64,000 bases of DNA from a virus: IMG/VR virus record IMGVR_UViG_3300045988_182866; one strand, 5' to 3'. Position 1 is the stretch's first letter. Each line of letters begins with the position of its first letter. Below the pieces are notes generated by a model. It was not told where the DNA came from. It saw only the letters and a list, made by a program, of their open reading frames with translations, and searched no databases. This document shows, piece after piece, positions 1,457 to 33,682 of the stretch. A program made the position numbers and the translations under genes.

Positions 1457-3805
1457 TTAATATAGTTTATAGTTGAGTTTTTTGAGAATTCGCTTAAAGG
1501 TTAATTTAACTTTATCTTTTGTTTGAAATCCTGCACCATTTAAAACCGCTTGTATTTTTTCTTTTACAGAAGAAGTCATAATATAGGTTGAAATATTATC
1601 CAAACAAACTGATGACATAGTATAAAAGAAATTCAATATTTCTTTATCTGAAAGCTTTTTAATTTCAGCATCAAACTCTCTTTGAATATTATAACATTGA
1701 ATTGAAAGATCAAATATATCCATTATGAATCGGTTAAATCCTCCTCTATAAAGATTAATTTCATATCTTGTAGAGATAACCGGATAATCAGGAGTCGATG
1801 CAGAAATTTTTGGAGCTGTATATCCTGTTACAGATTTAAAATCAATATCATAAATCCTGCAGATATTAATGATTTGATCTGGAAGATAAACGAGTTTATG
1901 CTTTTTACAATATTCAATATAGGTTTCTTTCCATTTAATTTCTATAGCTGAAATGCACCCGAGAGAAACAAATTTATCGTAATGGTTTTTATAAAGCTTT
2001 GCTATTCGTTTAATGCCAAAATCTGTACAAAGATGAGACTGATAAAGCTGCGTCGGACTATTATAATTAACGAAATTTGTACAAAAGGCCAAATAAGAAT
2101 TAAGGTAGTTATCATTATTCATGCGCATTGAAGGATAAAATACTAACGTATTTTTGTATTCTTTCTCATCAATAATTTCACCGGTATAATAATCCCGGAG
2201 AACTACCGCTTCACCATCTGAAGACTTTATTCTTTTAGGCCTGACATATGTTGAATGCTTAACAATATCAGAATAATTAAACCAATCGATATTTTGCCTA
2301 AAGCACGGCTTGTCGTTAAAAGTAAAGGCCGTCCTTAAATTAAGGAAATTTGCTTTTTCTTCTTCATCTTTAACAAAACAAAAAATATGAGTTCTTCGAA
2401 GATCAAAGACTTCTGCTCGATAATCATTCCCCCTAAGGTGAACAAGATAATTATAAAGGGCATTAATTATTTCACCATAAGGAAGCTTGATAGGATCTTT
2501 ATCTTGAACGATAAAGATTATTTCACCGTCAAACTTCTTAATGGTCGGATTTGAATAAAGGCTTTTCGTTTTAAGATTAATATTAGTAATATTGCCTGAA
2601 CCTGCATAATAATTTTTTGCAACTGAGCAAACAGTATTCAAATAGCAATCCGGCCATTTAATAATTGAACTATTTCGATAAAATAAAGTACTTTTTGAGT
2701 TAGCTTTATTGATAATATCTGAACAAAGTAAATCACTGTCAATAAGTTTATCGACATAATCATTAATAGTCTTTTCATAATTTTTATTAATGATTTTAAA
2801 TTTACCCTTAATCCAATCATTTGTGAAATTGTTTATTTCAATCGATTCTCTGGTAGGAGAAATCGGAATTTCACCGCGTTTAAAAAATAAAAGAACGGTA
2901 CAAGCATTTTTAATGATATTATATTCATTAAAGATTTCATTAGGAATATCAATCTTGTAAATGTTATCCCCATCATAAGCATAATAATTACAGCTCTTAA
3001 AAAATGAAGAATAAAAAGTATTAGAAGACCGGTAATTCGGAATCAGCAAAACTGTATCTTTAATATAAAGAACTCGGGATTTGTCAAGAAATTCTTTATC
3101 TCGATACTTTGCAAATCTTGGGGTTTTTTCGTAAGGGACATAATTTTCCCATTTATCCTCCGGTACGTCTTCAATGTCTATTTTTTCCGGATAACTCCTA
3201 AGTTCAATGACAGGTTCATCACTATTGAAGCCAAAAGTAATATACGCATCCTTGATTAAATCAAGGAACTTGTAATAATCATCAGAATTATTAAGAGGAA
3301 TCTTTACCTCAATACCCGTATCATTCAAATCACAGGGTTCAGAATGAATCAAAGAAGCAATAGAATCATTACCATCAATGCTTGAAGAAAATGTATATTT
3401 TGTTCCTTCAAATCGAGAAATTACCAAATAAAGGCCTGTATATGCCGCAGGAGCCTTAGACCCGATTCCAAATCCTCCAATGGATGTATTTTCTTGATTC
3501 TTGGTAGATTCAAAATATTGAAAGAAAACTTGAAAAGTATCTTCTTTGCTAAGACCCCTGGCAAAATCACGAATAGAAAGTTCATTTTTTGTAAGATGAA
3601 TAGAAACAGGCCTTTTAATGCCATATTTTACATGTCCATCCAAAGCATTGCTTAACGTTTCAAAAAGTGTTGCCTTAAATTTGTCTGAATAGATCCTATC
3701 GCGCAAAATAGAAATTGCCATTCCTACGCGCTCGGCCGAGATAGACTGTTTGACCTGTTCGGCTATACCTCCGCAAATACTTTTATTCTCTTCAAAAACC
3801 TTCAT
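1457..3805 (-). CDS. rIIA: rIIA-like protein with N-terminal GHKL (Hsp90-like) ATPase fold
   Basis: 782 aa. Bergerat-fold motifs: N box ETLSNALDGH; G2 box SIGGFGIGSKAPAAYT, almost identical to T4 rIIA FIGGFGLGSKSPFSYT. Size and rIIA-rIIB gene order match T4. Confidence 0.8.
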   Translation of the reverse strand: MKVFEENKSICGGIAEQVKQSISAERVGMAISILRDRIYSDKFKATLFETLSNALDGHVKYGIKRPVSIHLTKNELSIRDFARGLSKEDTFQVFFQYFESTKNQENTSIGGFGIGSKAPAAYTGLYLVISRFEGTKYTFSSSIDGNDSIASLIHSEPCDLNDTGIEVKIPLNNSDDYYKFLDLIKDAYITFGFNSDEPVIELRSYPEKIDIEDVPEDKWENYVPYEKTPRFAKYRDKEFLDKSRVLYIKDTVLLIPNYRSSNTFYSSFFKSCNYYAYDGDNIYKIDIPNEIFNEYNIIKNACTVLLFFKRGEIPISPTRESIEINNFTNDWIKGKFKIINKNYEKTINDYVDKLIDSDLLCSDIINKANSKSTLFYRNSSIIKWPDCYLNTVCSVAKNYYAGSGNITNINLKTKSLYSNPTIKKFDGEIIFIVQDKDPIKLPYGEIINALYNYLVHLRGNDYRAEVFDLRRTHIFCFVKDEEEKANFLNLRTAFTFNDKPCFRQNIDWFNYSDIVKHSTYVRPKRIKSSDGEAVVLRDYYTGEIIDEKEYKNTLVFYPSMRMNNDNYLNSYLAFCTNFVNYNSPTQLYQSHLCTDFGIKRIAKLYKNHYDKFVSLGCISAIEIKWKETYIEYCKKHKLVYLPDQIINICRIYDIDFKSVTGYTAPKISASTPDYPVISTRYEINLYRGGFNRFIMDIFDLSIQCYNIQREFDAEIKKLSDKEILNFFYTMSSVCLDNISTYIMTSSVKEKIQAVLNGAGFQTKDKVKLTFKRILKKLNYKLY

Positions 3806-4755: not shown

Positions 4756-4790
4756 AAAAAATCCTCAGATCAATTAAGACCTGAGGATTT
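4756..4790 (-). terminator. hairpin terminator 3' of the chaperonin gene (stem aaatcctcag / ctgaggattt, 12-nt loop, U-run on minus strand)
   Basis: 10-bp perfect inverted repeat followed (on the minus strand) by a T-rich run; lies between the chaperonin stop (4811) and the next gene's start (4735). Confidence 0.45.
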
Positions 4791-4810
4791 TCGGTTATCA
4801 TGATTACAAA

Positions 4811-6415
4811 TCACTTTTCAGATTGTTCATCAACCAAGAATGTTTCTGTTGTTAGAATCAAACCTGCCGATGCAGCGGCGTTTTCAATTGCGCAACGACA
4901 TACACTAAATGGATCAATAATTCCCGCTTCTAACATGTCTACTAACTTTTGCGTCTTAATATCAAACCCGATACTGCCTTTAGCTTTTGCAACCTTTTCG
5001 ATGATAACATCCGGTCGTTCAACTCCGGCATTCTCAAGAAGAGTCTTAAGAGGAATATCAAGAACCTTTCGCATTAAGTTAACACCGGCATTAAAAGATT
5101 CATCTCCTGTTTCAAACTTAATAGACTTGTTTTCTTTAATCTTAGCGAGAACAGATCCTCCTCCTGGAATAACTCCGGATCGTAAAGCCGCTTGACAGGC
5201 ACACACCGCATCGTCTACACGATCCTTAATTTCATTTAATTCAGATTCAGAATTACCTCCGATATTAAGAACACATACTCCTTGGGCAAGCTTGGCAATT
5301 CGCTTATTAAGCACATCTTCTTCCCAGGAACCAGGACTGCAATTATCTCGTTCCTCTTTAAGCAAATCAATATGTTCTTTAAGCCTTTGAGGATTTCCTC
5401 CGCCTTTTAAGAAAGTTGTATATCGTTTATCACAAACAATCTTTTCACAGGTGGCAAAATCTTCCTCTCTAATAGAATTAAAATCACGTGAAAGAAGTTC
5501 AGTAAAATATGTACCCCCTAAAGTAATTTCAAGATCTTCCATTTCTCTCTTCATGCCGTCTCCATATCCGGGACACTTAATGGCACAAATGTTAATAATG
5601 CCTTTAATCTTATTAATGACAAGAGTTTGAAGAACTTCGGATTCAATATCCGGAGCGATAATAAACAAAGGCCTTCCACGAAGTTCTTTAGTATTAAAGA
5701 CCTTTTGAAGAATAGGCATAATTTGTTGATTATTCGTCAATTTAATTCCGGATAAAAGAATTAAGGGATTTTCAAGAATACATTCTTGTTTAGTCGTATT
5801 ATTGACAAAATAAGAACTCATCCAGCCTCGAGGAACTCGTAAACCTGCAATAAACTGGGAAGAAGATTCATTACTCCTGCTGTCATTAATAGTAATGGAA
5901 CCATCCAAACCTACTTTTTCAACAGCTTCAGAAACAAGATGTGCAATTTCTTTATCCCAGTTGGTAGAAACTAAAGCAATTTGGTGAATCTGTTCTGGAG
6001 AACATTCCTGCTTAATATTTTCTTTAATATAGTTGGCAATTGTCTTTGCCGCTGAAATAACTCCGCGTTGAATTAAAATCGGATTATAACCTGTTTCAAT
6101 CAGCTTCATGCCTTCAGATGCAATAGCCCCAGTGAGGATTGCGCTGGTACTGGTCCCATCACCAGCCTGGTGCGCTGATTGCTCGGATGCTTGACGAATA
6201 ATATCTGCACCCATTTTTTCAAGTACATCAGGCGGATTTACATGACGAGCTACTGTAACGCCGTCTTTTGTAATATATGTCGCATTACCCATTCGATATA
6301 TTACATTTCTGCCGCCAGGCCCGAGCGTCGAAGAAACTGCATTAGCAAGTTTCTTTACACCATTAAGCAGTTTCTTCCTGCCTTCATTTCCCATATAAAT
6401 GTTTTGTTGAATCAT
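4811..6415 (-). CDS. groEL: GroEL-like group I chaperonin (Hsp60/Cpn60 family), phage-encoded
   Basis: 534 aa. Diagnostic GroEL motifs: GPGGRNVIY (GroEL GPKGRNVVL), AGDGTSTS (GroEL AGDGTTTA), and the C-terminal equatorial-domain pattern. No GroES-like co-chaperonin ORF is adjacent. Confidence 0.85.
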   Translation of the reverse strand: MIQQNIYMGNEGRKKLLNGVKKLANAVSSTLGPGGRNVIYRMGNATYITKDGVTVARHVNPPDVLEKMGADIIRQASEQSAHQAGDGTSTSAILTGAIASEGMKLIETGYNPILIQRGVISAAKTIANYIKENIKQECSPEQIHQIALVSTNWDKEIAHLVSEAVEKVGLDGSITINDSRSNESSSQFIAGLRVPRGWMSSYFVNNTTKQECILENPLILLSGIKLTNNQQIMPILQKVFNTKELRGRPLFIIAPDIESEVLQTLVINKIKGIINICAIKCPGYGDGMKREMEDLEITLGGTYFTELLSRDFNSIREEDFATCEKIVCDKRYTTFLKGGGNPQRLKEHIDLLKEERDNCSPGSWEEDVLNKRIAKLAQGVCVLNIGGNSESELNEIKDRVDDAVCACQAALRSGVIPGGGSVLAKIKENKSIKFETGDESFNAGVNLMRKVLDIPLKTLLENAGVERPDVIIEKVAKAKGSIGFDIKTQKLVDMLEAGIIDPFSVCRCAIENAAASAGLILTTETFLVDEQSEK

Positions 6416-7503
6416 GATTTACAATTATTATAGCATGTTTCTTTGATAAACTTTTTTAATTTTTCCTTATTCTTTCGCCACTGAGTATCTAAAATTTCTA
6501 TTAATTTTATACCTTTTTTCTCACAATCTTTTTTCTTTTGAACATGATAGCCTGGATATTTTTCTTCCTTTAACTTATGATGGTAATCACCGTTGCATTC
6601 AAAGGCTAGATTTAATTCAGGAAGATAAACATCAAGTTCTTTTTTTCCAATAATATCTCTTGGGTTTTCTTGAACCTCGCCTGGATAAATTGATTTAATA
6701 TATTGACAAAGTTCTATTTCACCTTTAGATCTTTTTGATGCCGCTAAGCATTTAGGGCAACCGCTTCCGCGTAGATGCGTATTGGGCAACTGTAAAAATG
6801 GGCCATGTTTTTTACAAGTTATAATAATTTTTGTTTTTGCATTTTTATAAGCTACCAAAGAATAATCATACTTGTCTCCATGAGTAGCTCTAGCTTTTTC
6901 TATAAATTCTTCAATAGTTCTCTTATTATTTCCGGCACAAAATGGGCAGCCGGAGCCTGAAAAATGCTTATCAGGGCGTTGTTCAAAAACTCCATGTATG
7001 GGACATATAATTTTTACTTTTGTTCTTTTATTTTTATAAATTACTAAAGAATAATCATATTTGGTTCCATGAACTTCAATAAATCTTTTTCTAATCTCTT
7101 CCTCAGTTAAAAACTGATTTTTAATTGCACATTTTTTACATCCTTTTCCTATTAAATGGCTTGATGGATCTTGCTTAAGGGTACAACCACATTTATTACA
7201 TTTTATGATTACCTCGGTTGTTGAATTTATATAATTAACTAAAGAATAATCATATCGGCCTTTCCCATGAATTTCTTCAGCTTTTTCTATAAATTCTTCT
7301 GTAGTCCTGTTAAATCCTTTACATTTAGGACAACCATGGCCCATTAAATGAATGTTGGGAATTTGCTCAAAGTAGCCATGTATGGGACAAAATATTTTAA
7401 TTAATGTTTTTGTGTTAAAATATACAACTTCAGAATAACCATACTTATTGCCATGTATTTCAATAGCTTTTTTAATAAACCCTTTAGTTGTTAATCTTTT
7501 CAC
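6412..7503 (-). CDS. freestanding homing-endonuclease-like protein: 4 zinc-ribbon repeats + Vsr/DUF559-like nuclease domain (paralog 2 of 5)
   Basis: 363 aa. Repeats IHGNKYGYSEVVYFN...CPIHGYFEQ...HLMGHGCPKC. C-terminus KELDVYLPELNLAFECNGDYHH. Overlaps the chaperonin start by 4 nt (ATGA). Confidence 0.55.
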   Translation of the reverse strand: MKRLTTKGFIKKAIEIHGNKYGYSEVVYFNTKTLIKIFCPIHGYFEQIPNIHLMGHGCPKCKGFNRTTEEFIEKAEEIHGKGRYDYSLVNYINSTTEVIIKCNKCGCTLKQDPSSHLIGKGCKKCAIKNQFLTEEEIRKRFIEVHGTKYDYSLVIYKNKRTKVKIICPIHGVFEQRPDKHFSGSGCPFCAGNNKRTIEEFIEKARATHGDKYDYSLVAYKNAKTKIIITCKKHGPFLQLPNTHLRGSGCPKCLAASKRSKGEIELCQYIKSIYPGEVQENPRDIIGKKELDVYLPELNLAFECNGDYHHKLKEEKYPGYHVQKKKDCEKKGIKLIEILDTQWRKNKEKLKKFIKETCYNNCKS

Positions 7504-7662
7504 GATTTTTAATCATTATAGCACGAATTAATAAATTTCTGCCCGCAATTTGAATCTAAATCTTCGAAAGATATGGAATTACCGCAAGGAGGATGCTTAT
7601 ATTGAACGGGAAAATATCCTTTCTGGCAGCAGCAAGAAGACAGAAGAAATATTACTAATAAT

Positions 7663-8085
7663 TTAACCCCAAGTGAATAATCCATAACCCCAGTACCGGC
7701 TTATATTAGGAAGAGGATTTGGTGTTTCTTCAAGGAAAATAGTCTGGCCGGGATGCCGCTTTTCATATACTTGCTTTACAAGGAAAATAATAAGAGATAT
7801 GAAAAAGTCAATTATAAAATGAACGTTATCTGTCTGTCCCTGTAAAATATTTTCGATGAGGTCAAATTTATTTTCTTTAAGATAATCAATTAGCTCAACC
7901 GGAAGAATATCATCTTCGCCAGCGGCAAAAATATTATCATCAAAATCAAACCCTAGTTCAGATTTAATGCCATCTAAACATTGTTCAAATTCTTCTTTAG
8001 TAAGATCAGTCTTTAACCATACTATATCTCTTTCATCATGTCCATCTCCGGACAAATCACCATATTCAAAACTAAAAATATTCAT
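7663..8085 (-). CDS. hypothetical protein (acidic N-terminus, hydrophobic segment)
   Basis: 140-aa ORF codirectional with its neighbours; no recognisable motif. Confidence 0.35.
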   Translation of the reverse strand: MNIFSFEYGDLSGDGHDERDIVWLKTDLTKEEFEQCLDGIKSELGFDFDDNIFAAGEDDILPVELIDYLKENKFDLIENILQGQTDNVHFIIDFFISLIIFLVKQVYEKRHPGQTIFLEETPNPLPNISRYWGYGLFTWG

Positions 8086-8145
8086 ATCAATATAAATGGA
8101 AATTCCGCCTAATATTAAATTAGGCAGAATTTCTTTATTTGTTAA

Positions 8146-9195
8146 TTAATTACCAGCAGGTTTAAAATCTGCAATATTCAGAACCTTAAACAAACCATCG
8201 TTTTGATTAGCTCCTCCCATAATCAACATTGAAGGAAGTTTAATATCTTTAAAAGATTCAAAAAACTTAATTCGTGCATAATTACTTCCCATTGCTGCAT
8301 TCAATTCTCGAATTGCTTCAGCTTCAAGCTTCTTACCTTGAGCTTCTGCGGTCTTCATAGCAAGAAGAGCTTCTGCTTCATTTTTCTTTTGAGCAAGCAT
8401 GGCCAAAGACTCTTGTTCTCGGCGATACCTTGCAGCATCAGATTCAGCCTTAGCCTGAAGAAGTTTACCTTGAGCTTCTGCAGCCATCTTATTGGCAATT
8501 GCCCGGCCTTCTGCATTAGCAATCTCTTCGGAACGCTTTGCAATTTCAAGCTGGGTAGCCTGGCGTTCATATTCCTGAGTAGCCTCAACCTTCTTAGTAA
8601 TACCAAGAGTCACCGATTCAGGTGGAATAGTGGAACCAATAGTTACACTTTCAACAATAAATGGAGTGCCATTAAGTTGCTTCTTAAGGTTAGTTTCTAC
8701 CATCTTGGTGATTTCCGGAATCCTAGAAGGAGCTTCTAGACCTTTAAACTTAGCAATAGCAGATCGTACTTCGGTACGGAAAGGTTGCTGAATAAATGAA
8801 GCGTAAGCATCTTGAGCAATAGCTTCCGGGCATCGAGCTGTTTCAGAGATAGCTCCATAATTTTCAACAAATTCCTTTACTTTTTCACTGTCGATACGAT
8901 AAACAAGATAAGATTCAGCCTTCATCTTAAGCTGGTCCGAACTACGAACATCATCAAAAGTTTCAGTCTGAGTATAAGGAGTTACGCAAATCTTAATAGA
9001 ATTCTGCCTCCATACCATACCTGTACTACCGGGTCCTTTAATTACTTGCTTAAATTCCTTCGAACCAAATATAGGTTCGGAATAAACATAACCTGCGTAA
9101 CCGCCATCGATTTTTTCATTTGAAAAATTAACGGCAAAAATAATAGCCGCAACAACGGCAATAATTAGAAATAGAGCTGCAAAAAAATCCTTCAT
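8146..9195 (-). CDS. SPFH/band-7 (stomatin/prohibitin/flotillin/HflK-C) family membrane protein
   Basis: 349 aa. N-terminal TM helix FFAALFLIIAVVAAIIFAV, then an SPFH-like core, then an Ala/Glu-rich coiled coil (EAEALLAMKTAEAQGKKLEAEAI) typical of HflK/HflC/YdjI-type proteins. Confidence 0.6.
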   Translation of the reverse strand: MKDFFAALFLIIAVVAAIIFAVNFSNEKIDGGYAGYVYSEPIFGSKEFKQVIKGPGSTGMVWRQNSIKICVTPYTQTETFDDVRSSDQLKMKAESYLVYRIDSEKVKEFVENYGAISETARCPEAIAQDAYASFIQQPFRTEVRSAIAKFKGLEAPSRIPEITKMVETNLKKQLNGTPFIVESVTIGSTIPPESVTLGITKKVEATQEYERQATQLEIAKRSEEIANAEGRAIANKMAAEAQGKLLQAKAESDAARYRREQESLAMLAQKKNEAEALLAMKTAEAQGKKLEAEAIRELNAAMGSNYARIKFFESFKDIKLPSMLIMGGANQNDGLFKVLNIADFKPAGN

Positions 9196-9237
9196 GTTTT
9201 ATTTTCTTTTTATTTTTTAATGTGACTAATATTAATG

Positions 9238-9687
9238 TTATACAGAAATATTATTAGTAACTGGAATTCCAACCACTGGAATCTTGGTCTTTAACTTAAT
9301 CTTATAATCCCCCACAACTAAATCCTTTGCCTTTATCTTAGAAATAGCATTGGAAACTGTAGTGATATTATATTTTTTACCTCGTTGAGACTTCACAACA
9401 TCGATAAGATTTCGTTCAACTGCCAACTGAACTTCTGAATCACTAAGTTCCTCAGGAGCTTGAATAATTACATAAGAACGATCTTGAAATTGTTCGACTT
9501 CTGTATCATCCAAAACAATCGGCATTACAAGAAATCGATTTTTAACTCGATTTTTCTTTTCGGTCAATTCTTTCTCTTGCTCAACAAGAGCCTTTGCTTC
9601 CTCCAGAATAATTTTTTGTTTATCCTGAGGTACTTTAGAAGCCGCAAGAATCATCTCAAGGTCTTCAATATCAATTTTTAGTGCCAT
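9238..9687 (-). CDS. hypothetical protein (between PspA-like and SPFH genes)
   Basis: 149-aa ORF codirectional in the PspA...SPFH gene string. Confidence 0.35.
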   Translation of the reverse strand: MALKIDIEDLEMILAASKVPQDKQKIILEEAKALVEQEKELTEKKNRVKNRFLVMPIVLDDTEVEQFQDRSYVIIQAPEELSDSEVQLAVERNLIDVVKSQRGKKYNITTVSNAISKIKAKDLVVGDYKIKLKTKIPVVGIPVTNNISV

Positions 9688-9690
9688 AGT

Positions 9691-10257
9691 TTATATTTGA
9701 TATGTGATTAAATCCGTTGTCAATTTATTAATTGTTTCAATAAATGCTACCGGGATAGCTTCTTCAATTTTTAGTAAAAGTAATTTTAAGTTCTCATTAA
9801 CTTTAGGGCCAAATAAAATATATTGAGTATCATTGTTTAAATCGACAGAATAAGCTTTAAAATTTGCTTGATTAAAACTTATAACTGTAAATCTATCAAC
9901 AATTAAATTGTTTTTTAAAAAAGTCTCTCTGACAAAATTCTCAAGATCTCTGGAATAAATTCCTCTATGATGATCTACTTCTACTTCAATTAAAAAAGAT
10001 TGATTTATATCAATAAAGTGGTCAAATGAAGCTATTCCTAAAGTATTCCACCAAGTAAAATACCTTTCATTAAGGCCATTCTTTACTTTAATGATTTTGC
10101 TTTTATTGGCAAATGGAGAGTAAATTGTAAAAGCATGTTTAAAATCTTCAATAGTCCTGTAAGCAGGATCTTCAAAGAATTCTTCTTCAAATAAATCGAC
10201 TTGGTAAGTTTTACCATTACCAAGTCGATCAATAAGTTTGAAAACTGCTTGTTTCAT
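9691..10257 (-). CDS. hypothetical protein (between PspA-like and SPFH genes)
   Basis: 188-aa ORF; start/stop abuts the PspA-like gene (10257). Confidence 0.35.
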   Translation of the reverse strand: MKQAVFKLIDRLGNGKTYQVDLFEEEFFEDPAYRTIEDFKHAFTIYSPFANKSKIIKVKNGLNERYFTWWNTLGIASFDHFIDINQSFLIEVEVDHHRGIYSRDLENFVRETFLKNNLIVDRFTVISFNQANFKAYSVDLNNDTQYILFGPKVNENLKLLLLKIEEAIPVAFIETINKLTTDLITYQI

Positions 10258-11250: not shown

Positions 11251-11710
11251 TTCCTGCGTATTCAACTAAAAGAACAGAAATATCATGCTTTGTTCGAAAA
11301 TTATACAAAAGATTTTCAAATTCTTTTGGTTTTACTCGTCCTATACCGCATCCCAAAAAAGGCATTACAACAGTATTAAGATGATGAGTGTTCATAACTT
11401 CAAACAAATCGCAAAGAGACAAAGAAATATCTCCCAAATTTGCTATTGAACCAGGATAAAACATGGTTGGAACATTGGCAATCATTTTCCAATTATCTTC
11501 ATCGGACAAATAAAAATAATGGCCTTTACCAATATTAACCATTTTAGAATTACAAGAGTTCTGATAACTCCAGTACATTTCAGGAAATTTATCGGCAAAA
11601 GCTTTTGCAACTCCTGCTCCCATTACTCCGATACAATTGACGGCATTGCAAATTACATCCGCCTTTGTATCAAAGATATTTCCTTTTGTTTTAATAACTT
11701 TAAGAGACAT
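11246..11710 (-). CDS. macro domain protein (ADP-ribose binding / ADP-ribosyl hydrolase fold)
   Basis: 154 aa. ICNAVNCIGVMGAGVAKAF matches the macro-domain NAAN...GGGV signature. Confidence 0.6.
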   Translation of the reverse strand: MSLKVIKTKGNIFDTKADVICNAVNCIGVMGAGVAKAFADKFPEMYWSYQNSCNSKMVNIGKGHYFYLSDEDNWKMIANVPTMFYPGSIANLGDISLSLCDLFEVMNTHHLNTVVMPFLGCGIGRVKPKEFENLLYNFRTKHDISVLLVEYAGN

Positions 11711-24660: not shown

Positions 24661-26190
24661 ATGAACCTTTCTTTATTGACAGTATTATGTCATGGCAAAA
24701 ATAATAGCCAACTTAAAGAATTATTAAAAAATAATAAAATATTAAATTTTATTAATACTTTTATTAAAGATAAACCTTATTATGAAACACCCTTTAGATT
24801 TTTAAAATTGTTGAGTAAAAATGCAACATTACCTGCCTGTATTATATGTGGAAATATTATTTCTTATAGTATTTGGAATAGACGTAATAATGCTAAATTT
24901 TGTTCTAAAACTTGCAAATATTCTAAAGAAGGTAAAGAAAATACTAGAAAAAATATTGAAAAAACATTAATTGAAAAATATAAGGTTAAAAATATTTTAC
25001 AACATAAAAAGTTTAAAGAAAAACAAGAATTAACTTGTTTAGCAAAATACGGAACTAAATTTTATTCAAAAACTTCAGAATGTAAAGAAAAAGTTAAGAA
25101 GACGTCATTAGAAAAATTTGGTACAAATAATGTGATGTTCAATAAAAAGGTTTTAAAAAATATAAAAAATAATAATTTATTAAAATTTGGGGTTGAATGG
25201 CCTTTATCAGATAAAACTATTCATAAAAAAACTATGAATAGTCTTGTTAAAAAACATTTAGAAAAGCTTAAAAAGTTTAATTTAACTTTGTTAGATGAAT
25301 ATCAATCCACAAAAGAATACTATAATTTTAAATGTGCTACATGTGGTAATACATTTAAAGATCATTTAAAAAATGGTAGAATTCCTATATGCAAACATTG
25401 CTTTCCTTCTAATACTTCTATTGGGGAAAAAGAATTATCAAACTTTATTAAACAATTTTCTTCTAATATTAGCTTAAATGATAGAACATTAATAAATCCT
25501 TTAGAATTAGATATTGTTATTCCAGAAAAACATTTAGCAATAGAATTTAATGGGCTATATTGGCATTCTGAAGAACATGGTAAAAATGAAAATTATCATA
25601 TTAATAAATCATTATTATGTAAATCTAAAAACTTTAATTTAATTCATATATTTGAAGATGAATGGCTTTTTCAAAAAAATATAATAAAAGGTATTATAAA
25701 AGATTATTTTAATAGCAAAAAAATAAAAACAAATTTTATTACATTTAAAAAAATCGATAATAAATTAGCTAAAAAATTTAATGAAAAATATAATATTCTT
25801 GGACATATTACTACAAAAAATAATTTTGGACTTTTTTATAAAAATAGATTAATACATGTATTATCTGTTGGAAAACCAAGATTTAATAAAATTTACAAAT
25901 ATGAAATTTATCGATTATCCTCAACATTTAATTTTAAAATTGAAAATTATTTTAAAGTTTTAATTGATAATTTACCTTTATCAATTAAAGAATCATTAAT
26001 ATTTTATGAAAATAAACGTTTTCCTATTATTAATAAAACATTATTAGATAATTTGATATTTTTATCAAATTCTAAGCCAAGCTATTTTTTTGTCAAAAAT
26101 AAAAATAGATATTCAAAATATAATAAAATAAATAGATTTGATTATAAAATTTGGGATTGCGGATCAACACTTTATCAGGTTAAATATTAA
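24661..26190 (+). CDS. divergent member of the homing-endonuclease-like family (zinc ribbons + central Vsr-like nuclease domain + ~170-aa C-terminal extension; paralog 3 of 5)
   Basis: 509 aa. Contains ELDIVIPEKHLAIEFNGLYWH (Vsr-like core) and CxxC/HC ribbons (IPICKHCFP, CATCGNTF); weaker repeats than the other paralogs. Confidence 0.45.
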   Translation: MNLSLLTVLCHGKNNSQLKELLKNNKILNFINTFIKDKPYYETPFRFLKLLSKNATLPACIICGNIISYSIWNRRNNAKFCSKTCKYSKEGKENTRKNIEKTLIEKYKVKNILQHKKFKEKQELTCLAKYGTKFYSKTSECKEKVKKTSLEKFGTNNVMFNKKVLKNIKNNNLLKFGVEWPLSDKTIHKKTMNSLVKKHLEKLKKFNLTLLDEYQSTKEYYNFKCATCGNTFKDHLKNGRIPICKHCFPSNTSIGEKELSNFIKQFSSNISLNDRTLINPLELDIVIPEKHLAIEFNGLYWHSEEHGKNENYHINKSLLCKSKNFNLIHIFEDEWLFQKNIIKGIIKDYFNSKKIKTNFITFKKIDNKLAKKFNEKYNILGHITTKNNFGLFYKNRLIHVLSVGKPRFNKIYKYEIYRLSSTFNFKIENYFKVLIDNLPLSIKESLIFYENKRFPIINKTLLDNLIFLSNSKPSYFFVKNKNRYSKYNKINRFDYKIWDCGSTLYQVKY

Positions 26191-27459: not shown

Positions 27460-28061
27460 ATAATCAATTTATCGTCAGGAATTTTTGTATACATTTGGGC
27501 AAAGGCAAAAGCACAAGAACATTCAATAGGTCCTGTTTGAGAATAGTCATAAGAAAATCCATTTAAGGAAGTTGGAAAGGCTTCCGAAAAGATGAATTGA
27601 ATCTTTGGCTTATTATATTCATCTAAGCCAATTGCACTAACATTTGTCCAATATGACTCTAATCTAAAATAATCTTGTTTAGAAATTAAATTATTTGGGT
27701 CAGGAATTGCGAGTTTCTCATCATGAATAAGATTTAACCAATTATAAAGAGTAATATAGTTAGTATAATCTCCATTAATCTCAAATGAAAAAGTTAATAA
27801 AGGAAATGGTTCTTTAGAATGAGAGGAAACATAAACATTTCCAGAAGCATATCGTTGTGAAATTGCTTTAATGGTAATATCAGGAATTTTAATTTTACTA
27901 AGAGCAAACTGAACTGAATTTTTATTAACAGATTCTTTGGAAATATTAAGAGTTGTCTTATTCAGACGCATTAAAGGCTGTGGCATATTAAAAAGAAATA
28001 TCCACTTATCTGCCCTTGTCTTATTAAGGGGACTTTGAATAATCGGTTGTTCAGTATTCAT
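27456..28061 (-). CDS. hypothetical protein (possible virion protein)
   Basis: 201-aa ORF translationally coupled to its neighbours. Confidence 0.3.
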   Translation of the reverse strand: MNTEQPIIQSPLNKTRADKWIFLFNMPQPLMRLNKTTLNISKESVNKNSVQFALSKIKIPDITIKAISQRYASGNVYVSSHSKEPFPLLTFSFEINGDYTNYITLYNWLNLIHDEKLAIPDPNNLISKQDYFRLESYWTNVSAIGLDEYNKPKIQFIFSEAFPTSLNGFSYDYSQTGPIECSCAFAFAQMYTKIPDDKLII

Positions 28062-29065
28062 TAAACAATGTCTACTCTGGATAAAAGATTTAAATTAGAT
28101 ACCATGAATGATGCAGGATATTTTTCAAACCGGCAAAATGCTGTTTTATTAGCACTTATTTTGGTAATAACATTCTCCGCTTTAGGAAATGTAATGCTTA
28201 TCTCAGTATTTCCAGAGTTTTTAATAGCAACCGTATAAGAAAATATATTAATATCTGGCATATTAGTAAAATTCCAATCTACAGTTTTATCAGCATTAGT
28301 TTGAATAATATAACAAGGATCAATGCCGTCTGAAGCATAATCAAAATTCATATTATCGGTATAATTAATGATTTTATTATGACTTATTTCAGAAGCACTA
28401 ATAGCATCATCAACATATTTTTTAGTTGCTGCATGATTATCATTAGTAGGTGTTACAATTGTAACAGGTTTACCTTCAATTGATGGACCGCTATCTCTTA
28501 CATAGAAACCATTTTCTACACTATCAACATTTGCATACATTGCTACTACATCAGCCTTACAAACCCAGGTATAATAATTTCCTTCATTTGAACCATACTG
28601 TACAGAACGATATGTTGGATAGATTTCCTCTTTCCAGGTCCTATCATTATTAAAAATTATGCCTCCTTGCCAAGAGGCAGATAATTCGCCGCCACTGGCA
28701 ATATTTGCAATTACTTGCTGATAAGTTACTGTATGAGGATTAGACTTATTATCAATATGTGCAGTTAAATCTGTAGATTTGGCAAATGTATCTGAAATAA
28801 GATCATCAGGAACTATACCGGAAGTAGGAATTAATAATACTTCATTAGGAGAAGTACCAGCATTATAATTTACTGCAGTTCCAAAATCTTTTTTAAAATA
28901 ATTAGAAACTGTTCCTAAAGTAACTTTATTAGCTTCTTCCCCATAAACAGAATTAACTGAATCAAATTGTAAAACATAAAATAGACTAGTGTCTGCTAAA
29001 GGATCAGTAAGCGCCGGTAACTGATCTAATGTTACTAAATTAAATTCTGAAGGTGACGAAGCCAT
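28061..29065 (-). CDS. hypothetical virion protein, possibly tail-fibre/receptor-binding-like
   Basis: 334 aa. Contains an ATKKYVDDAI-type motif recurrent in phage fibre proteins; follows the terminase gene. Confidence 0.3.
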   Translation of the reverse strand: MASSPSEFNLVTLDQLPALTDPLADTSLFYVLQFDSVNSVYGEEANKVTLGTVSNYFKKDFGTAVNYNAGTSPNEVLLIPTSGIVPDDLISDTFAKSTDLTAHIDNKSNPHTVTYQQVIANIASGGELSASWQGGIIFNNDRTWKEEIYPTYRSVQYGSNEGNYYTWVCKADVVAMYANVDSVENGFYVRDSGPSIEGKPVTIVTPTNDNHAATKKYVDDAISASEISHNKIINYTDNMNFDYASDGIDPCYIIQTNADKTVDWNFTNMPDINIFSYTVAIKNSGNTEISITFPKAENVITKISANKTAFCRFEKYPASFMVSNLNLLSRVDIV

Positions 29066-29082: not shown

Positions 29083-31020
29083 TTAGAACCAGTTAGGTAA
29101 ATCTCTGACACCAAATTGGTCAAAGCTATTCGGAAGGGTAATCTGGTTTCGATATTCATCCAAACTAAGAGTTTCTCCAAAATCTAAAAGATTCATTTGC
29201 TTTTTTTGTTTAAAATCATTACTTGATGTAATAGTATTAATTTGGCCTTTACTAAATCCGGCCATTACTCCGATAAATGGAGATTCCATATCCAACTCTT
29301 TATAAAGAGTATTAGCCCAATCAGTCCTGGGATCCATTTCCCATCGTTTTTTAATAACAAGAGGAATATTATTGACGTCTTTTTTATCAACAATAAGATA
29401 ATTGTTAATTACTTTCTTATAAAGAGCAAAAAGACTCCAACATAAAGCCAAAACATGGTCATCATGGAATCCTGGTTGAGCACACCATCGAATATTATTA
29501 CTTTGATTACGAATGCAAGTAAATGTTCTTAATTCTTCAATAGTTTTTTTATCATAAATTTTGACAACTCGACGGTCATGAATATAATATTTCATATTAT
29601 GAACGCCTTCGCTTTTTGTCACTCTATTGGTAATAATACCCGGGAGAACTTTTCGCCCTGGGGTTTGCGGCCCGTATCCTGAACCGAAATTAATAAATCT
29701 CGGATAATTATTTTCATAGAACAGCTTTTCACAAACATGGGCCCCAGGGCCGTTTCGTTCAACTGACATAATAGGAGAATACCACTGTTTTGCAATTTCC
29801 AAGACTTTAGCCGCAAAAGTAGTAATATCCATTGTATTAGTTGAATATCTGGCAGCCTGCTCAATATTCAAGGGGTCAGTAATATCAAAAATTTGAATAA
29901 CTGAATAGTCTTGTCCTACGCCTTCAGAAGTATCAACTCCCATGGTATAGATTTTTTCGGAATCAGGTTTTTTCCAAATATAATAATTTCCATCTTCTAA
30001 TATGTTTAATGGTTCAATTAATTCTTTTGTGAACTTATCAAACATGTTAGGATCAAATGGAGAGCCCGAATTATTAAGAAACCTACATTCATATTCTTGA
30101 GTAAATGTATCATAGCTCATTGTGCTCAATTCAGCATCTTTCCAAGCTTCTGTTCTGCCAGGGAAATCAAACCAAAAAGCTTTCTCTAACGCAAAATCGT
30201 TTCTTCCTTCTTCCGCCTTAGATACCAATTCATGAAATTTATTACCTACGCCCTTAGGAGTAGATGCCACAATAAGCTTTGCATTTTTATTATTATTAAA
30301 ACGAGAAGCAAGAGTAGGAGTAACAGCAGCCCAGAAAGCTTCAGCATCTTTAGGAGGAATAATAGCAAACTCGTCAAGAAGAAGAACATCAATAGCTAAA
30401 CCACGAATAGCATCAGGTGAAGTAGCTGATGTTAAGATACGAGAACCATTCGCTAATGTAAAGAATGTTTTATTAAATTCAAGAACACCGCCCTTAATCC
30501 AGTTTTCCATCATTTGGAAAGCCAGACGAACACGCATAAAAATTTCGGTTGCTGTTGACTGTTTGTTAGCGACAATACATACAGTTTGGTCAGGATGAAA
30601 TACTGCAACCCATGTAGCAACGATAGTCATTAAGGTCGTATTATGGGAAAGAATACCGTTGGCATAATATAAATGATTTGAATCTTTAGCTAATTCAAAA
30701 TCATACATATTTTCCCATTCAGATGTTGCAATTACATCAACAACTTTATCTCCTCCATAATTAGTTGCAATATCTTCGCCAAGTGAATCTTTAGCAAAGA
30801 CTTGCTCATCTTTCATAGTAATTAAAATATGATTATCGGCACATTCGAGAATATTACCTGTCTTGAATTTAATAATATATTTTTGATAAGGGACAGTTTT
30901 ATTAATAGTTTTAATATCTGTCCATTCCTGATTTGAAGAAATTTGCCAATTTGAAGCATCAAGAACTTCTTCAAATTTTCTAAAAATTGTTTTAGATAAA
31001 TCTTTAAATTTTTTAAGCAT
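29083..31020 (-). CDS. large terminase subunit (gp17-like), C-terminal portion: intein C-part (blocks B, F, G) fused to the TerL C-extein (Walker B, nuclease domain)
   Basis: 645 aa. After ...NGILSHN the sequence TTLMTIVATWVAVF...ATSPDAIRGLAIDVLLLDEFA...GVDTSEGVGQDYSVIQIFDITD...FHDDHVLALCWSLFAL aligns with T4 gp17 (GKTTVVAIFLAHFV, ASSPDAVRG...[44 protein letters not shown]). The first ~127 aa carry intein blocks B (GNILECADNHILIT) and F/G (MYDFELAKDSNHLYYANGILSHN). Confidence 0.85.
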   Translation of the reverse strand: MLKKFKDLSKTIFRKFEEVLDASNWQISSNQEWTDIKTINKTVPYQKYIIKFKTGNILECADNHILITMKDEQVFAKDSLGEDIATNYGGDKVVDVIATSEWENMYDFELAKDSNHLYYANGILSHNTTLMTIVATWVAVFHPDQTVCIVANKQSTATEIFMRVRLAFQMMENWIKGGVLEFNKTFFTLANGSRILTSATSPDAIRGLAIDVLLLDEFAIIPPKDAEAFWAAVTPTLASRFNNNKNAKLIVASTPKGVGNKFHELVSKAEEGRNDFALEKAFWFDFPGRTEAWKDAELSTMSYDTFTQEYECRFLNNSGSPFDPNMFDKFTKELIEPLNILEDGNYYIWKKPDSEKIYTMGVDTSEGVGQDYSVIQIFDITDPLNIEQAARYSTNTMDITTFAAKVLEIAKQWYSPIMSVERNGPGAHVCEKLFYENNYPRFINFGSGYGPQTPGRKVLPGIITNRVTKSEGVHNMKYYIHDRRVVKIYDKKTIEELRTFTCIRNQSNNIRWCAQPGFHDDHVLALCWSLFALYKKVINNYLIVDKKDVNNIPLVIKKRWEMDPRTDWANTLYKELDMESPFIGVMAGFSKGQINTITSSNDFKQKKQMNLLDFGETLSLDEYRNQITLPNSFDQFGVRDLPNWF

Positions 31021-31159
31021 TTTTAAAGGTAATTTTGTTAATAAACTTTTTAAGCTTATTTTGAATTTTAATTAATTTAAAAAAGATTCCAACGTTAATC
31101 TTAAAGGATAAATTTAAAGGCTTATAACGCACGCAAATTGGCACACTTGGAGAAAGACA
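30640..31159 (-). mobile_element. mini-intein in the TerL P-loop (between GK and TT), encoded across two overlapping ORFs in different frames; candidate atypical split intein
   Basis: N-extein ends SRQWGK, then Cys (CLSPSVPI..., block A). The C-part ends ...ANGILSHN, then Thr-Thr. Joining the exteins gives SRQWGKTT, the gp17 Walker A. The two ORFs overlap by 8 nt (ATGCTTAA) and their frames differ. Confidence 0.7.
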
Positions 31160-31468
31160 TTTGCCCCACTGACGAGAGCTTATAAGCAGTGTCTTCTTAT
31201 TGCGCTGAATTGTTTTTAAGATTTTTTTCTGTTTTTCAAAAAGGGTAATATGTTCTTTTTGACCGCTTAACGCAGAAATAATATAAAAGTGATTTTCAGC
31301 AAAATAGATAATATCTTTCTTACACCGGGCAATCTCTTTAATCATCGCCGGAGTATAGGTATAAGTTGTAGTATTCTTAGGTAAATTAGGATTATTAAGA
31401 TAATATTCCTCATTTGCTACTACTTCTTCACCCCTAAAATCAATGATCTTTGTAGCTTTTTTAGGCAT
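31013..31468 (-). CDS. large terminase subunit (gp17-like), N-terminal portion up to the Walker A Lys, fused to a short intein N-part (48 aa)
   Basis: 151 aa. YTPAMIKEIARCKKDIIYFAENHFYII...KKTLLISSRQWGK aligns with T4 gp17 [27 protein letters not shown]...RMTVCNLSRQLGKTT; then CLSPSVPICV... follows. Confidence 0.8.
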   Translation of the reverse strand: MPKKATKIIDFRGEEVVANEEYYLNNPNLPKNTTTYTYTPAMIKEIARCKKDIIYFAENHFYIISALSGQKEHITLFEKQKKILKTIQRNKKTLLISSRQWGKCLSPSVPICVRYKPLNLSFKINVGIFFKLIKIQNKLKKFINKITFKNA

Positions 31469-31471
31469 AAC

Positions 31472-32071
31472 TTACAGAATTTTATTGATGAAAGAATCAG
31501 GATGAATCAAAGTATTAGTAACATTCATAATCAATAATTCTTTAAAAGTACTATTGATAATAGTATAAAGATATTCATCCATAGAATGAGCATTATCAAT
31601 AATAATCAAATCATAGGTTTGTCCTCTTAGAGCAAATTCTGCAGAGTTCATTGATTTAAACCTAATAAGAGAATTATTACCGAAATAAAATTCAGATTTA
31701 TTGTAATCACGAACACAACCTATAATTTCATTGTTAAGTTCATTTAATGTATCAAGAGCAATACCCAATTCATTAATCATTAAATCAGCCATTTTCCTAT
31801 TCTCAGTAATGAATAAAATTCTGGAATTTGGATTATAATAAGCCTGGGCAAGAGCAAGGGCGATACAAGTTACTGATTTATTAGACTTTCGATTATCAGA
31901 AGATAATAATAATTTTAAACGTTTTTTATTAGACCGCTTAAGAACTTCCATAGTGAATAAAGAAGATTCAAATGGAATTGCCCGTTCTTTGGAATTAATC
32001 ACAAAAATTTCATTTTCATTTAAGGCATCTTCTAAAGCTTTGATGATATTTTCATTATTAAACATATACAA
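31472..32071 (-). CDS. TerL ATPase-core paralog with degenerate Walker A and Walker B Glu->Asn (predicted catalytically inactive)
   Basis: 199 aa. ...KRLKLLLSSDNRKSNKSVTCIALALAQA... sits where TerL has SRQxGKTT; SMNSAEFALRGQTYDLIIIDNAH parallels TerL ATSPDAIRGLAIDVLLLDEFA in the downstream gene, with DN in place of DE. Confidence 0.55.
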   Translation of the reverse strand: MYMFNNENIIKALEDALNENEIFVINSKERAIPFESSLFTMEVLKRSNKKRLKLLLSSDNRKSNKSVTCIALALAQAYYNPNSRILFITENRKMADLMINELGIALDTLNELNNEIIGCVRDYNKSEFYFGNNSLIRFKSMNSAEFALRGQTYDLIIIDNAHSMDEYLYTIINSTFKELLIMNVTNTLIHPDSFINKIL

Positions 32072-32119: not shown

Positions 32120-33682
32120 ATGATGAAAAGCTCTAATATTGGAGGCATAGCTGAAGAAATTTTCGCTGAAAGTTATGGTACAGTTGGTAATTTAGTACCT
32201 GAAGAACCAATTACTAAGAAAATTCCTTGTCCTGAAAAGACTAAAAATAAAGTAAAAATTCCGCCTCGTTTCAAAGGTTCTCCTTTCGATTCTTCTGTTG
32301 AAAAGGATTACTATAAAAATGAAACAAATTGTTTTGATGAAGACGAAGAGGACTTTGAAACAGATGATCAGGAAATTCAAGATGTTATTCTTCAGCAATA
32401 TGAAGGTATTGGTCCTAGGACTAATGGAATGGCATTATCTGATATTCTCGGTTATTTCTCTGTTTCCGATGGAGTTTATCCTAAGAACGAAGTCATGCGA
32501 GTTCTTCAAGATATGATTAATAAGAATATTCTTGAAATTGATCCTATCACCAAAAAGATCTTTAAATCTTTAGAAGAAGATGAAGAGGATGAATTTATTA
32601 CTCCTGAAGAAATTACCGATGAAGAAAAAGGAAATGATTTAATTGATTCTGTTATTGACTATTTTGAACAATCTACTTCCGGTTCTGTAGGAGGTATTAA
32701 CCTTTCTCAAATCTTAAAGGACGTAACCTCTAATACCGGAGCTTCCCGAGCTGAAGTAGTTCAGGCTATCAAAGACCTGCTTCAAAGTAATATTCTTAAA
32801 AAGGGTGTTACTGAGGGTACTATCATTTTAAATTCTACTTCCAAAACAGATGAAGTAGAAGAAGATGCAGAAGGACCTATTCCAGTTATTAATCAAGAAA
32901 CCCCCGAAACACTTCGAGCTAAAGGCTGGACGGAAACAGCACCTGGTATTTTTGTTGGTCCTGACGGCGTTCAAAAATATGCTTTAACTGGAGAATCATA
33001 TAACACTAAGCTAAATAAACATATGAGTAATTTTAACGATGATAATTTCAGCAAGTTATGCGAAGAATTTGAAAAAGAATTCGATAAGGTGGATGTGAGT
33101 CTTGACGATTCTACTGAAGGTCTTGATGAATTTGCTGATGAAACTGAAGTATCTGATGAAGAAGGCGAAACTATGACCATGGAAATTCCTCGTCACCTGG
33201 TTGATGCTATTACAGAACTTGCAGCTATTTTTAGTGATTCTGAAGATGAACCTGTCGATGATCTTGCTACTGATGAAGAAGCTACAATTGACCTTATGGA
33301 TGGAGACGGCGATGAAGCCGAAGTTTCTGTTGAAGAAACTGATGAAGATGAAGAAGGTTGCGAAGATGATGAAGAATTCAACTTTGACGAAGACGAAGAA
33401 ACCATTGCTGATACGGCTGGTTCTATCTTTGATGCTTCTTTTGGACCTAATGAAGGCGGAGCTTCTGTAACCAAGGCTTCTACTACTCTTCCGGAAAAAC
33501 GCCGTAAGCCGATTGAAGGAGCTTATAAGCCCAATGCCGGCGGACAAGCTTATGATGCTTCTACCCGCAATGGCGGTGCTTCTGTGACTAAGGCTACTCC
33601 TGCTTTTGATAAGTCTGGAAAGCCAGTTGCTTCTAAGGTAAGTCAGAAAGCCAAATCTAAGAATTCTATTTTTGATTTGTAA
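32120..33682 (+). CDS. poly-acidic low-complexity protein with C-terminal GGASVTKA repeats
   Basis: 520 aa. Long D/E runs (EEDEEDEF, ETDEDEEGCEDDEEFNFDEDEE). GGASVTKAS/T occurs twice near the C-terminus, ahead of a basic tail. Confidence 0.5.
   Translation: MMKSSNIGGIAEEIFAESYGTVGNLVPEEPITKKIPCPEKTKNKVKIPPRFKGSPFDSSVEKDYYKNETNCFDEDEEDFETDDQEIQDVILQQYEGIGPRTNGMALSDILGYFSVSDGVYPKNEVMRVLQDMINKNILEIDPITKKIFKSLEEDEEDEFITPEEITDEEKGNDLIDSVIDYFEQSTSGSVGGINLSQILKDVTSNTGASRAEVVQAIKDLLQSNILKKGVTEGTIILNSTSKTDEVEEDAEGPIPVINQETPETLRAKGWTETAPGIFVGPDGVQKYALTGESYNTKLNKHMSNFNDDNFSKLCEEFEKEFDKVDVSLDDSTEGLDEFADETEVSDEEGETMTMEIPRHLVDAITELAAIFSDSEDEPVDDLATDEEATIDLMDGDGDEAEVSVEETDEDEEGCEDDEEFNFDEDEETIADTAGSIFDASFGPNEGGASVTKASTTLPEKRRKPIEGAYKPNAGGQAYDASTRNGGASVTKATPAFDKSGKPVASKVSQKAKSKNSIFDL

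Follow-up and report, generated by a model that had tools for sequence, protein, structure and literature searches.

How could a phage obtain its packaging ATPase when the gene for it is interrupted within the very loop that should bind ATP? The question is raised by a viral record of IMG/VR, IMGVR_UViG_3300045988_182866, of which a stretch of 64,000 nucleotides (nt), hereafter the window, was analysed. Its terL gene, encoding the large subunit of the terminase (TerL), is found on the minus strand as two overlapping open reading frames (ORFs), each of which carries one part of an intein. The answer that we consider very probable, judging from the sequences compared below, is that a natural mini-intein, split at the atypical position named S2, sits in the Walker A P-loop of TerL at GK/TT (the slash marks the splice point here and below), and that trans-splicing would reunite the two parts of the terminase. 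Arrangements of this kind are already known, and what is new here is one further locus.

Two reading frames for one terminase

Both the listing of ORFs and direct translation bear out what a first-pass annotation, made from the sequence alone, had described: two terL ORFs in different frames, overlapping by 8 nt with the ATG of the second placed on the stop codon of the first; an N-terminal fragment that runs to SRQWGK, continues with Cys1 and stops 48 codons later; and a C-terminal fragment in which an intein part of about 127 amino acids (aa) precedes TTLMTIV (Table 1). The conserved intein blocks B and F/G, and a run of six A, lie where they had been placed, and joining the exteins does restore Walker A as SRQWGKTT. 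The frame of ORF2 is +1 relative to that of ORF1. Only the size of the ligated protein had been misjudged, at about 770 aa: 103 + 518 makes 621 aa, with a computed mass of 71.5 kDa.

That the two ORFs encode the two ends of a single kind of protein is apparent from profile and sequence matches. ORF1 matches phrog_5989 and phrog_36964 (both terminase large subunit in PHROGs), and the tblastn matches of its N-extein are the N-termini of T4-type TerL proteins. ORF2 matches phrog_2 (terminase large subunit, E 3e-39) and the Pfam families Terminase_6N and Terminase_6C, with a weak match to Intein_splicing at the C-terminus of its intein part. The profile of phrog_36964, an intein-containing TerL family, is matched by ORF1 over positions 22-101 and by ORF2 over positions 359-718, a pattern suggestive of an insertion here in that family.

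The operon around these ORFs is tightly packed, with 3 nt between ORF1 and the gene upstream, 17 nt between the end of terL and the start of the gene directly downstream, and overlaps of 1 and 4 nt between further downstream genes of the same strand. A tail tube gene is the neighbour of terL in the window, and tail tube and sheath genes in its relatives, the usual late-operon position. The window yielded no second TerL, nor, in a regular-expression and hidden Markov model (HMM) scan, any further intein; a blastn search of the locus against GenBank phages gave no match.

Table 1. Features of the terL locus and of other genes mentioned, in coordinates of the window (IntN and IntC, N- and C-terminal parts of the intein).
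Feature	Position	Strand	Description
ORF1, TerL N-fragment	31013..31468	-	151 aa; N-extein, IntN and TAA stop
N-extein	31160..31468	-	103 aa; C-terminal LLISSRQWGK
First half of Walker A, SRQWGK	31160..31177	-	C-terminus of the N-extein
IntN	31016..31159	-	48 aa, CLSPSVPICVRYKPLNLSFKINVGIFFKLIKIQNKLKKFINKITFKNA; Cys1 = TGT 31157..31159; predicted beta1-beta2 hairpin and long basic helix alpha1
A6 run (T6 in the coding strand)	31079..31084		In IntN; encodes part of GIFFKL
Stop/start overlap ATGCTTAA	31013..31020	-	8 nt; ATG of ORF2 overlaps TAA of ORF1
ORF2, TerL C-fragment	29083..31020	-	645 aa; IntC, C-extein and stop
IntC	30640..31020	-	127 aa, MLKKFKDLSK...YYANGILSHN; conserved LSxxIxRKF head; terminal Asn = AAT 30640..30642
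Block B, LECADNHI	30826..30849	-	In IntC
Blocks F/G, MYDFELAKDSNHLYYANGILSHN	30640..30708	-	In IntC; MYDFEL...YYANGILSHN
C-extein	29086..30639	-	518 aa, starts TTLMTIVATW; Thr+1 = ACG 30637..30639; Walker B LLLDEF; nuclease domain
TT completing Walker A	30634..30639	-	First residues of the C-extein
Gene directly downstream of terL	28061..29065	-
ORF directly upstream of ORF1	31472..32071	-	199 aa; usual position of the small terminase gene
Homing-endonuclease-like gene	24661..26190	+	509 aa; free-standing
Acidic ORF	32120..33682	+	520 aa; divergent from the terminase operon
tRNA-Asp (GTC)	11453..11540	-

Residues, homology and predicted fold of the intein

The residue that directly follows SRQWGK is Cys1, the nucleophile of class 1 inteins, and a cysteine is found there in every relative that has retained the intein. 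All the catalytic residues are present and conserved, namely Cys1, the block B His, the block F Asp, the final His-Asn pair and Thr or Ser at position +1; in the window the positions downstream of Cys1 read CADNH, MYD and SHN/T, and within IntC the residues H64, D107, H126 and N127 are invariant across 18 members of the family (alignment A5). A profile built from these 18 IntC homologues retrieves from the PDB the inteins VidaL (E 6e-13), gp41-1 (1e-12) and CatC (3e-9), and the same three are matched by the single sequence of IntN fused to IntC, with E values from 4e-4 to 8.5e-3, the former for VidaL and the latter for CatC (6dsl_B).

A model was computed with AlphaFold2 (AF2) for ORF1 fused to IntC as a single chain, the input alignment covering full ORF1 plus IntC. 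Its mean predicted local distance difference test score (pLDDT) is 79.5, and in most of the intein core the block means exceed 90. IntN is predicted to form two strands (residues 110-115 and 120-125, making a hairpin at 110-125) and then a helix (126-147); block means stand at 94-96 up to residue 140 and at 76 for 141-150, confidence dips over residues 141-170 with a minimum of 55 in the block of the junction (151-160), and the part of IntC from residue 171 on is modelled at 92-98 up to residue 260, then at 87 and 81. When the model was compared with the PDB by Foldseek, the top matches listed were all inteins or intein-like (BIL) HINT domains, VidaL at E 9e-8 (target template modelling (TM) score 0.79), gp41-1 at a target TM score of 0.80-0.82, and CatC with 25% identity. 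The halves, when forced into one chain, are predicted to adopt the HINT fold.

The two halves are of opposite charge, IntN with an isoelectric point (pI) of 10.4 and a net charge of +10, IntC with a pI of 5.1 and a net charge of -5. The opposition recurs in four lineages (that of the window and those of the relatives L004, L011 and L008, described below), where IntN ranges from +4 to +10 and IntC from -2 to -12. Such complementarity, computed from composition, is in keeping with split-intein halves that associate with electrostatic help; for the halves of DnaE the opposite polarity has been described.

A proposed route from two polypeptides to one terminase

We propose the following course of events. 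The late operon would yield two polypeptides, N-extein(103)-IntN(48) and IntC(127)-C-extein(518), in coupled and roughly equimolar synthesis which the overlap of stop and start codons should favour, translational coupling of ORF1 and ORF2 being plausible from their layout. The basic IntN, made of beta1, beta2 and alpha1, would dock onto the acidic and nearly complete IntC, completing the HINT fold. Trans-splicing of class 1 would follow, with an N-S acyl shift at Cys1, transesterification to Thr+1, cyclization of the terminal Asn and an O-N shift, and ligation of K103 to T+1 would release the 621-aa TerL with its P-loop SRQWGKTT intact. The tryptic peptide TTLMTIVATWVAVFHPDQTVCIVANK would arise solely from the product ligated to ...QWGK.

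Several points weigh against this proposal, and they deserve to be gathered. No Shine-Dalgarno sequence is visible upstream of ORF2. The single sequence matches Pfam Intein_splicing weakly (E 0.0099, under the curated cutoff). The AF2 model, being a forced single-chain fusion, is no test of association in trans. At 48 aa (39 aa in L004 and L011), IntN lies outside the 15-37 aa of natural atypical IntN (PMC13014065), a range that is descriptive, not mechanistic, and compared with the equivalent part of contiguous relatives it is unusually hydrophobic and basic. Finally, the window covers 64 kb and the genome at least 126-200 kb, which leaves room for a second, intact terL; among the recorded contigs with a variant of ORF1, the longest has 202,537 bases.

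The atypical length and hydrophobicity of IntN, the partial view of the genome and the presence, directly upstream, of a 199-aa ORF resembling the ATPase part of TerL could also be read in another way: the split TerL would be inactive or non-splicing, either decaying or held together as a non-covalent complex, and packaging would depend on another terminase encoded elsewhere in the genome. We give this a small chance. The N-extein and IntN are under strong purifying selection, their ratios of non-synonymous to synonymous substitution (dN/dS) being 0.065 and 0.071 between the window and L014, from which it follows that IntN is a selected coding sequence in the frame of ORF1. The catalytic residues of the intein, Walker A and B and the nuclease domain of TerL are all intact, the gene occupies its usual late-operon position, no second TerL came to light in the window, and in the upstream ORF the Walker motifs are degenerate and a nuclease domain is missing. 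Furthermore, as is established for P-loop NTPases, a P-loop cut between GK and TT does not bind ATP unless it is religated. A trans-splicing mini-intein, split by nature, is the reading that we retain in what follows.

The same split in related contigs

Two sample datasets of IMG/VR supplied three more contigs (L001-L003). Over 2386 nt these show 3, 7 and 14 single-nucleotide polymorphisms (SNPs) relative to the window and not a single indel, and they keep both the junction and the arrangement of the ORFs. Near-identical versions of ORF1 form two protein clusters, P0001 and P0002, of 119 and 9 member sequences. Its database homologues number eight, all shorter than 152 aa, at 53-99% identity; seven are full N-fragments of 140-151 aa that end in an IntN of 37-48 aa, and the eighth (P0004) is a 98-aa form which stops before the intein.

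More distant relatives are still more instructive, as the N-fragment ends at the same place in all of them while what follows differs. At 85% identity (L014), two stop codons in tandem (TAA TAA) are followed by the collapsed remnant of an endonuclease gene, its zinc finger and its nuclease motif in different frames, with two in-frame TGA codons. At 60% (L004/L005), the halves are separated by a 371-aa ORF with C2H2 zinc finger and DUF559/MTES_1575 (Vsr-like) nuclease domains, the 3' end of which overlaps the ATG of IntC by 11 nt. At 59% (L011-13), there is TAA TAA, then 9 nt, then the ATG, both ORFs being in the same frame. At 53% (L008), 3.9 kb separate the halves and hold two endonuclease-like copies together with three other ORFs, and in L015 the N-fragment lies on the opposite strand from the pieces of the C-fragment. 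Tandem stops, an endonuclease gene, an insert and an inversion are mutually incompatible ways of ending the same fragment, so that no single indel could account for the split. The T6 run encodes the conserved motif GIFFKL, in frame in L014 too, and downstream of it the residues remain conserved in the frame of ORF1 in that relative.

A programmed +1 frameshift, or a bypass of the stop codon, at ATGCTTAA would give a contiguous precursor splicing in cis; the overlap does lie in an A/T-rich, slippery-looking stretch (CCTTTAAAAATGCTTAAAAAA), and a normal HINT domain is what the model predicts for the fused product. Its likelihood is nevertheless very low. The relation between the frames varies, from +1 with an overlap of 8 nt in the window to one shared frame after TAA TAA in L011-13, which means that programmed frameshifting is not a conserved mechanism; the halves are 1.1-3.9 kb apart or on opposite strands in L004, L008 and L015; all 122 proteins that begin with IntC, among the 146 read in the family survey below, start with Met at a conserved position; and a direct reading of the sequence reveals no canonical X XXY YYZ heptamer in the frame of ORF1.

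As for a sequencing or assembly frameshift, for instance at the A6 run, within an ordinary contiguous cis mini-intein of about 175 aa, the existence, at precisely this site of TerL, of contiguous inteins 155-174 aa long (the parts in the window add up to 175 aa) and the fact that both frames are open over some 18 codons upstream of the ATG, where one indel could in principle rejoin them, count for next to nothing against contigs with different SNPs, the same frames and no indels, clusters of 119 and 9 members, relatives at 53-85% identity with tandem stops, an endonuclease gene of 1.1 kb, 3.9 kb of inserted sequence or an inversion at this point, a T6 run set in a conserved motif with ORF1-frame residues conserved beyond it, and a dN/dS of 0.07 for IntN in its own frame. 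The first-pass annotation had favoured a natural split over a frameshift, and the contigs and relatives side with it: on these comparative data the intein is naturally split, its parts encoded by separate ORFs, an artefact is ruled out, and the split is ancestral to the clade of the window.

Position of the break in the intein family

The IntC profile was searched against 1.84 billion cluster representatives, yielding 3437 proteins at E<=1e-3, of which 345 reach E<=1e-30, and the reading of the family given here covers 146 new proteins among the best 150 matches. Most of them (122 of the 146, about 83%) are IntC-first, that is, begin with Met and then IntC at a conserved position before the RKF motif; at position +1, 86 of these proteins have Thr, 34 have Ser and 1 has Cys. 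The IntC-like part is internal in 21 others, 16 of which display G[KR][CS] at most 75 aa upstream, and the inteins of the seven internal cases that were read are all contiguous, measure 155-174 aa and occupy the identical site in TerL (GK/C...HN/T or HN/S).

Aligned to these contiguous forms, the tail of the window IntN and the head of its IntC correspond to a variable linker that leads from alpha1 to the LSxxVxRKF motif. The extra residues of IntN lengthen alpha1 and its tail. Natural atypical split sites are either S1, after beta2 (VidaL, PolB16), or S2, after alpha1 (AceL TerL, GOS TerL) (PMC13014065, 2026); with its junction in the linker behind alpha1, the window intein is therefore S2-split, like AceL-TerL and GOS-TerL. 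Natural atypical split inteins count as rare in the review literature (PMC11766414). The above counts suggest that, in the best-scoring part of the P-loop intein family, atypically split forms are the majority; if this is true, natural atypical split inteins would be common, contrary to what is held in the engineering literature.

The survey brought to light two further variants. Many TerL C-fragments that start with the P-loop IntC are only about 240-260 aa long (P0013, P0016, P0017, P0019, P0020, P0022, P0023) and end in a second short IntN after ...RGxSxN/C, just before Walker B, so that TerL would there consist of three pieces with two atypically split inteins. The same IntC family also occurs, IntC-first again, in the P-loops of other ATPases (P0024/P0025, P0036, P0038, P0040), of which P0024 and P0036 carry AAA-family Pfam matches (PF00004; for P0024 also PF07724); its target would thus be P-loops generally, beyond TerL.

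Comparison with known systems

AceL-TerL, GOS-TerL and the consensus Cat-TerL (PDB 6dsl), reportedly the subject of work by Dassa in 2009, Thiel in 2014, Bachmann and Mootz in 2015 and Stevens in 2018, likewise have a phage large terminase as host protein. As in the window, their parts belong to separate ORFs, a short IntN with block A and alpha1 and a long IntC with blocks B, F and G, the break falling after helix alpha1 (S2) and before block B. CatC is a distant homologue of the window IntC, its N-terminus aligning near the start of the family IntC, and the locus that yielded GOS-TerL is likewise a fractured gene, with a gene for a homing endonuclease. There are differences: in the window the halves, whose ORFs overlap by 8 nt, have no endonuclease gene between them; its IntN and IntC measure 48 and 127 aa, compared with 25/104, 37/115 and 30/104 for AceL, GOS and Cat-TerL; and its nucleophiles are Cys1 and Thr+1, those of AceL being Cys1 and Cys+1 and those of GOS Ser1 and Cys+1. 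The assignment to the AceL-TerL/GOS-TerL type made at first sight holds for the place of the break and for the layout of short IntN and long IntC. It probably does not extend to the insertion site, since a Cys+1 is found in these inteins whereas the window has a Thr+1 inside Walker A, at GK/TT. In the relative P0030, a family IntC precedes a C-extein that resembles Walker B and begins with Cys+1 (CVFIDEMAF).

VidaL (PDB 6vgv), the best match in the PDB by both sequence and structure, shares with the window intein an Ala at the 'T' position of block B and a block G of the form YY.(N/D)GI(L/V)SH(N/A), and is split earlier, after beta2 (S1), with an IntN of 16 aa. Inteins of gp41, NrdJ and IMPDH are broken at the canonical site of endonuclease insertion, unlike that of the window with its atypical S2 site. 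The contiguous mini-inteins of the TerL P-loop (P0049, P0058, P0085, P0096, P0042, P0151, P0146) are inserted at the same point, GK/C...HN/T or HN/S, and have homologous blocks A, B, F and G; they differ in being encoded by one ORF for splicing in cis, in length (155-174 aa, versus 175 aa in the window) and in the hairpin of their IntN equivalent, hydrophilic and of KKTGE type where the clade of the window has RYKPLNL. Of the phage records in GenBank, 308 have homologous inteins in terL, for example those of Det7, Kuja and PhiW-14.

The split at this site also has a counterpart in a cultured T4-like phage, Vibrio phage vB_VmeM-32 (KU160494), with a complete genome. Its N-fragment ends LSRQLGK/C with an IntN of 32 aa and its C-fragment starts with an IntC ending ASHN/TT, hence the same site and an S2-type split, and this C-fragment contains a second intein at Walker B (MIYVDE/CVSGDT). 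The halves (L016 1102..3216 and L017 1611..2288) are about 79 kb apart on opposite strands, where a misassembly is possible. The locus had been presented at first as an atypical TerL split intein in a complete phage gene context: a phage terL operon it is indeed, although not a unique one, as vB_VmeM-32 shares both the split and its site. One fragment of that phage bears the annotation 'hypothetical protein similar to terminase' and the other 'putative terminase large subunit', its split went unrecognized, and the paper on the phage is silent on inteins. Where the split goes unnoticed, such terL genes would be called a small hypothetical protein and a truncated terminase, as apparently happened there, which matters for annotation. 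It matters for biotechnology as well: few natural atypically split inteins have been characterized (AceL-TerL, GOS-TerL, VidaL, PolB16), they are tools for protein semisynthesis and labelling, and the locus adds a candidate with the pair Cys1/Thr+1, inserted directly in the Walker A loop.

Origin of the split

The fractured genes described in 2009 help to understand how the split may have arisen. Half of these loci contain an endonuclease of a then new Vsr-like family; in 15 of them the 3' end of the endonuclease gene overlaps the start of the downstream IntC by 6-69 bp; one terminase locus is broken at an unusual point, with a C-part of 122 residues; and the accompanying model makes the loss of the endonuclease gene its step III (locus gp41-7) and the dispersal of the halves its step IV (Dassa et al., 2009; PMC2677866). 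As in gp41-7, the N- and C-parts of the window terL are in their original order and locus, each with its part of a split intein. Between them the window has neither an intervening gene nor an intergenic region or hairpin, in contrast to fractured genes proper, which have a gene between the halves. The intervening endonuclease is present in L004/5 and L008 and left as a remnant in L014; L004 has the full fractured-gene arrangement, its 11-nt overlap falling within the range of 6-69 bp.

Placed side by side, the members of the clade display at one site all the states of the model: full fractured gene (L004), decaying endonuclease (L014), endonuclease lost (window and L011) and dispersed halves (L008 and L015), among which the window stands for the endonuclease-free, compacted state. 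To these are added contiguous inteins, so that the locus and its relatives make up an unusually complete natural series (contiguous, split by an endonuclease gene, decayed, with the endonuclease lost and the ORFs overlapping, separated or inverted), in agreement with the evolutionary model of 2009. Most likely, as far as sequences tell, the split arose when a contiguous P-loop intein was invaded by a free-standing gene for a Vsr-like homing endonuclease, and this gene would later have been deleted in the lineage of the window, as in step III. The endonuclease gene of L004 ends KFIKNVF*, overlapping the ATG of IntC in the same phase. We considered whether the last ten or so codons of ORF1 (KFINKITFKNA) are a relic of such a 3' end, and set this aside because DNA alignments are too weak in AT-rich sequence.

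The S2 split was kept in the clade through repeated gain, decay and loss of the endonuclease, even though contiguous inteins occupy the same site in other phages, and in the window it now takes the compact form of two genes overlapping at stop and start, under strong purifying selection. One may imagine that behind this pattern the split state is itself adaptive and no frozen accident of an endonuclease invasion, trans-splicing acting as a post-translational gate on the packaging ATPase, which would then form only once both halves have accumulated; we regard this as unlikely.

Some features of the relatives deserve mention here. TerL of the distant relative L015 is in at least three pieces (3477..3761 on the minus strand, 4788..10208 on the plus strand). 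Both plus-strand pieces start with the family IntC, and DUF7487 ORFs are found before and between them. The IntC regions are interrupted by in-frame TAG codons (table 11) which the database protein reads through, and this suggests a TAG-recoded phage. The remnant of L014 (1163..1431) has its first in-frame TGA exactly at the conserved Trp of the nuclease motif DGDYWH; its TGA codons reflect either pseudogene decay or TGA read as Trp.

Neighbouring genes in the window

The window itself has a free-standing homing-endonuclease-like gene, about 3 kb from terL and on the opposite strand (Table 1). Its 509-aa product matches phrog_3339 (E 1e-65) and Pfam DUF7487, and in its C-terminal part it is similar (34% over 68 aa) to the Vsr-like nuclease domain of the endonuclease in L004.

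The 199-aa ORF that precedes the TerL N-fragment has weak profile matches to Pfam ResIII (6e-6) and TerL_ATPase (0.014) and to phrog_7579 (9e-4). It is conserved, with 91% identity in L014 and 36% in L004, and its Walker-like motifs look degenerate (SDNRKSNKS, which is SNKRQSGHTT in L004, and LIIIDNAH). It was not retained as a TerL paralogue: pairwise BLASTP against the spliced TerL is not significant (E 0.24), leaving the weak profile matches only.

On the other side of this ORF, transcribed away from the terminase operon, lies a 520-aa ORF, very acidic (D/E-rich), for which no Pfam or PHROG match was found. The tRNA-Asp gene is the sole tRNA gene found in the window.

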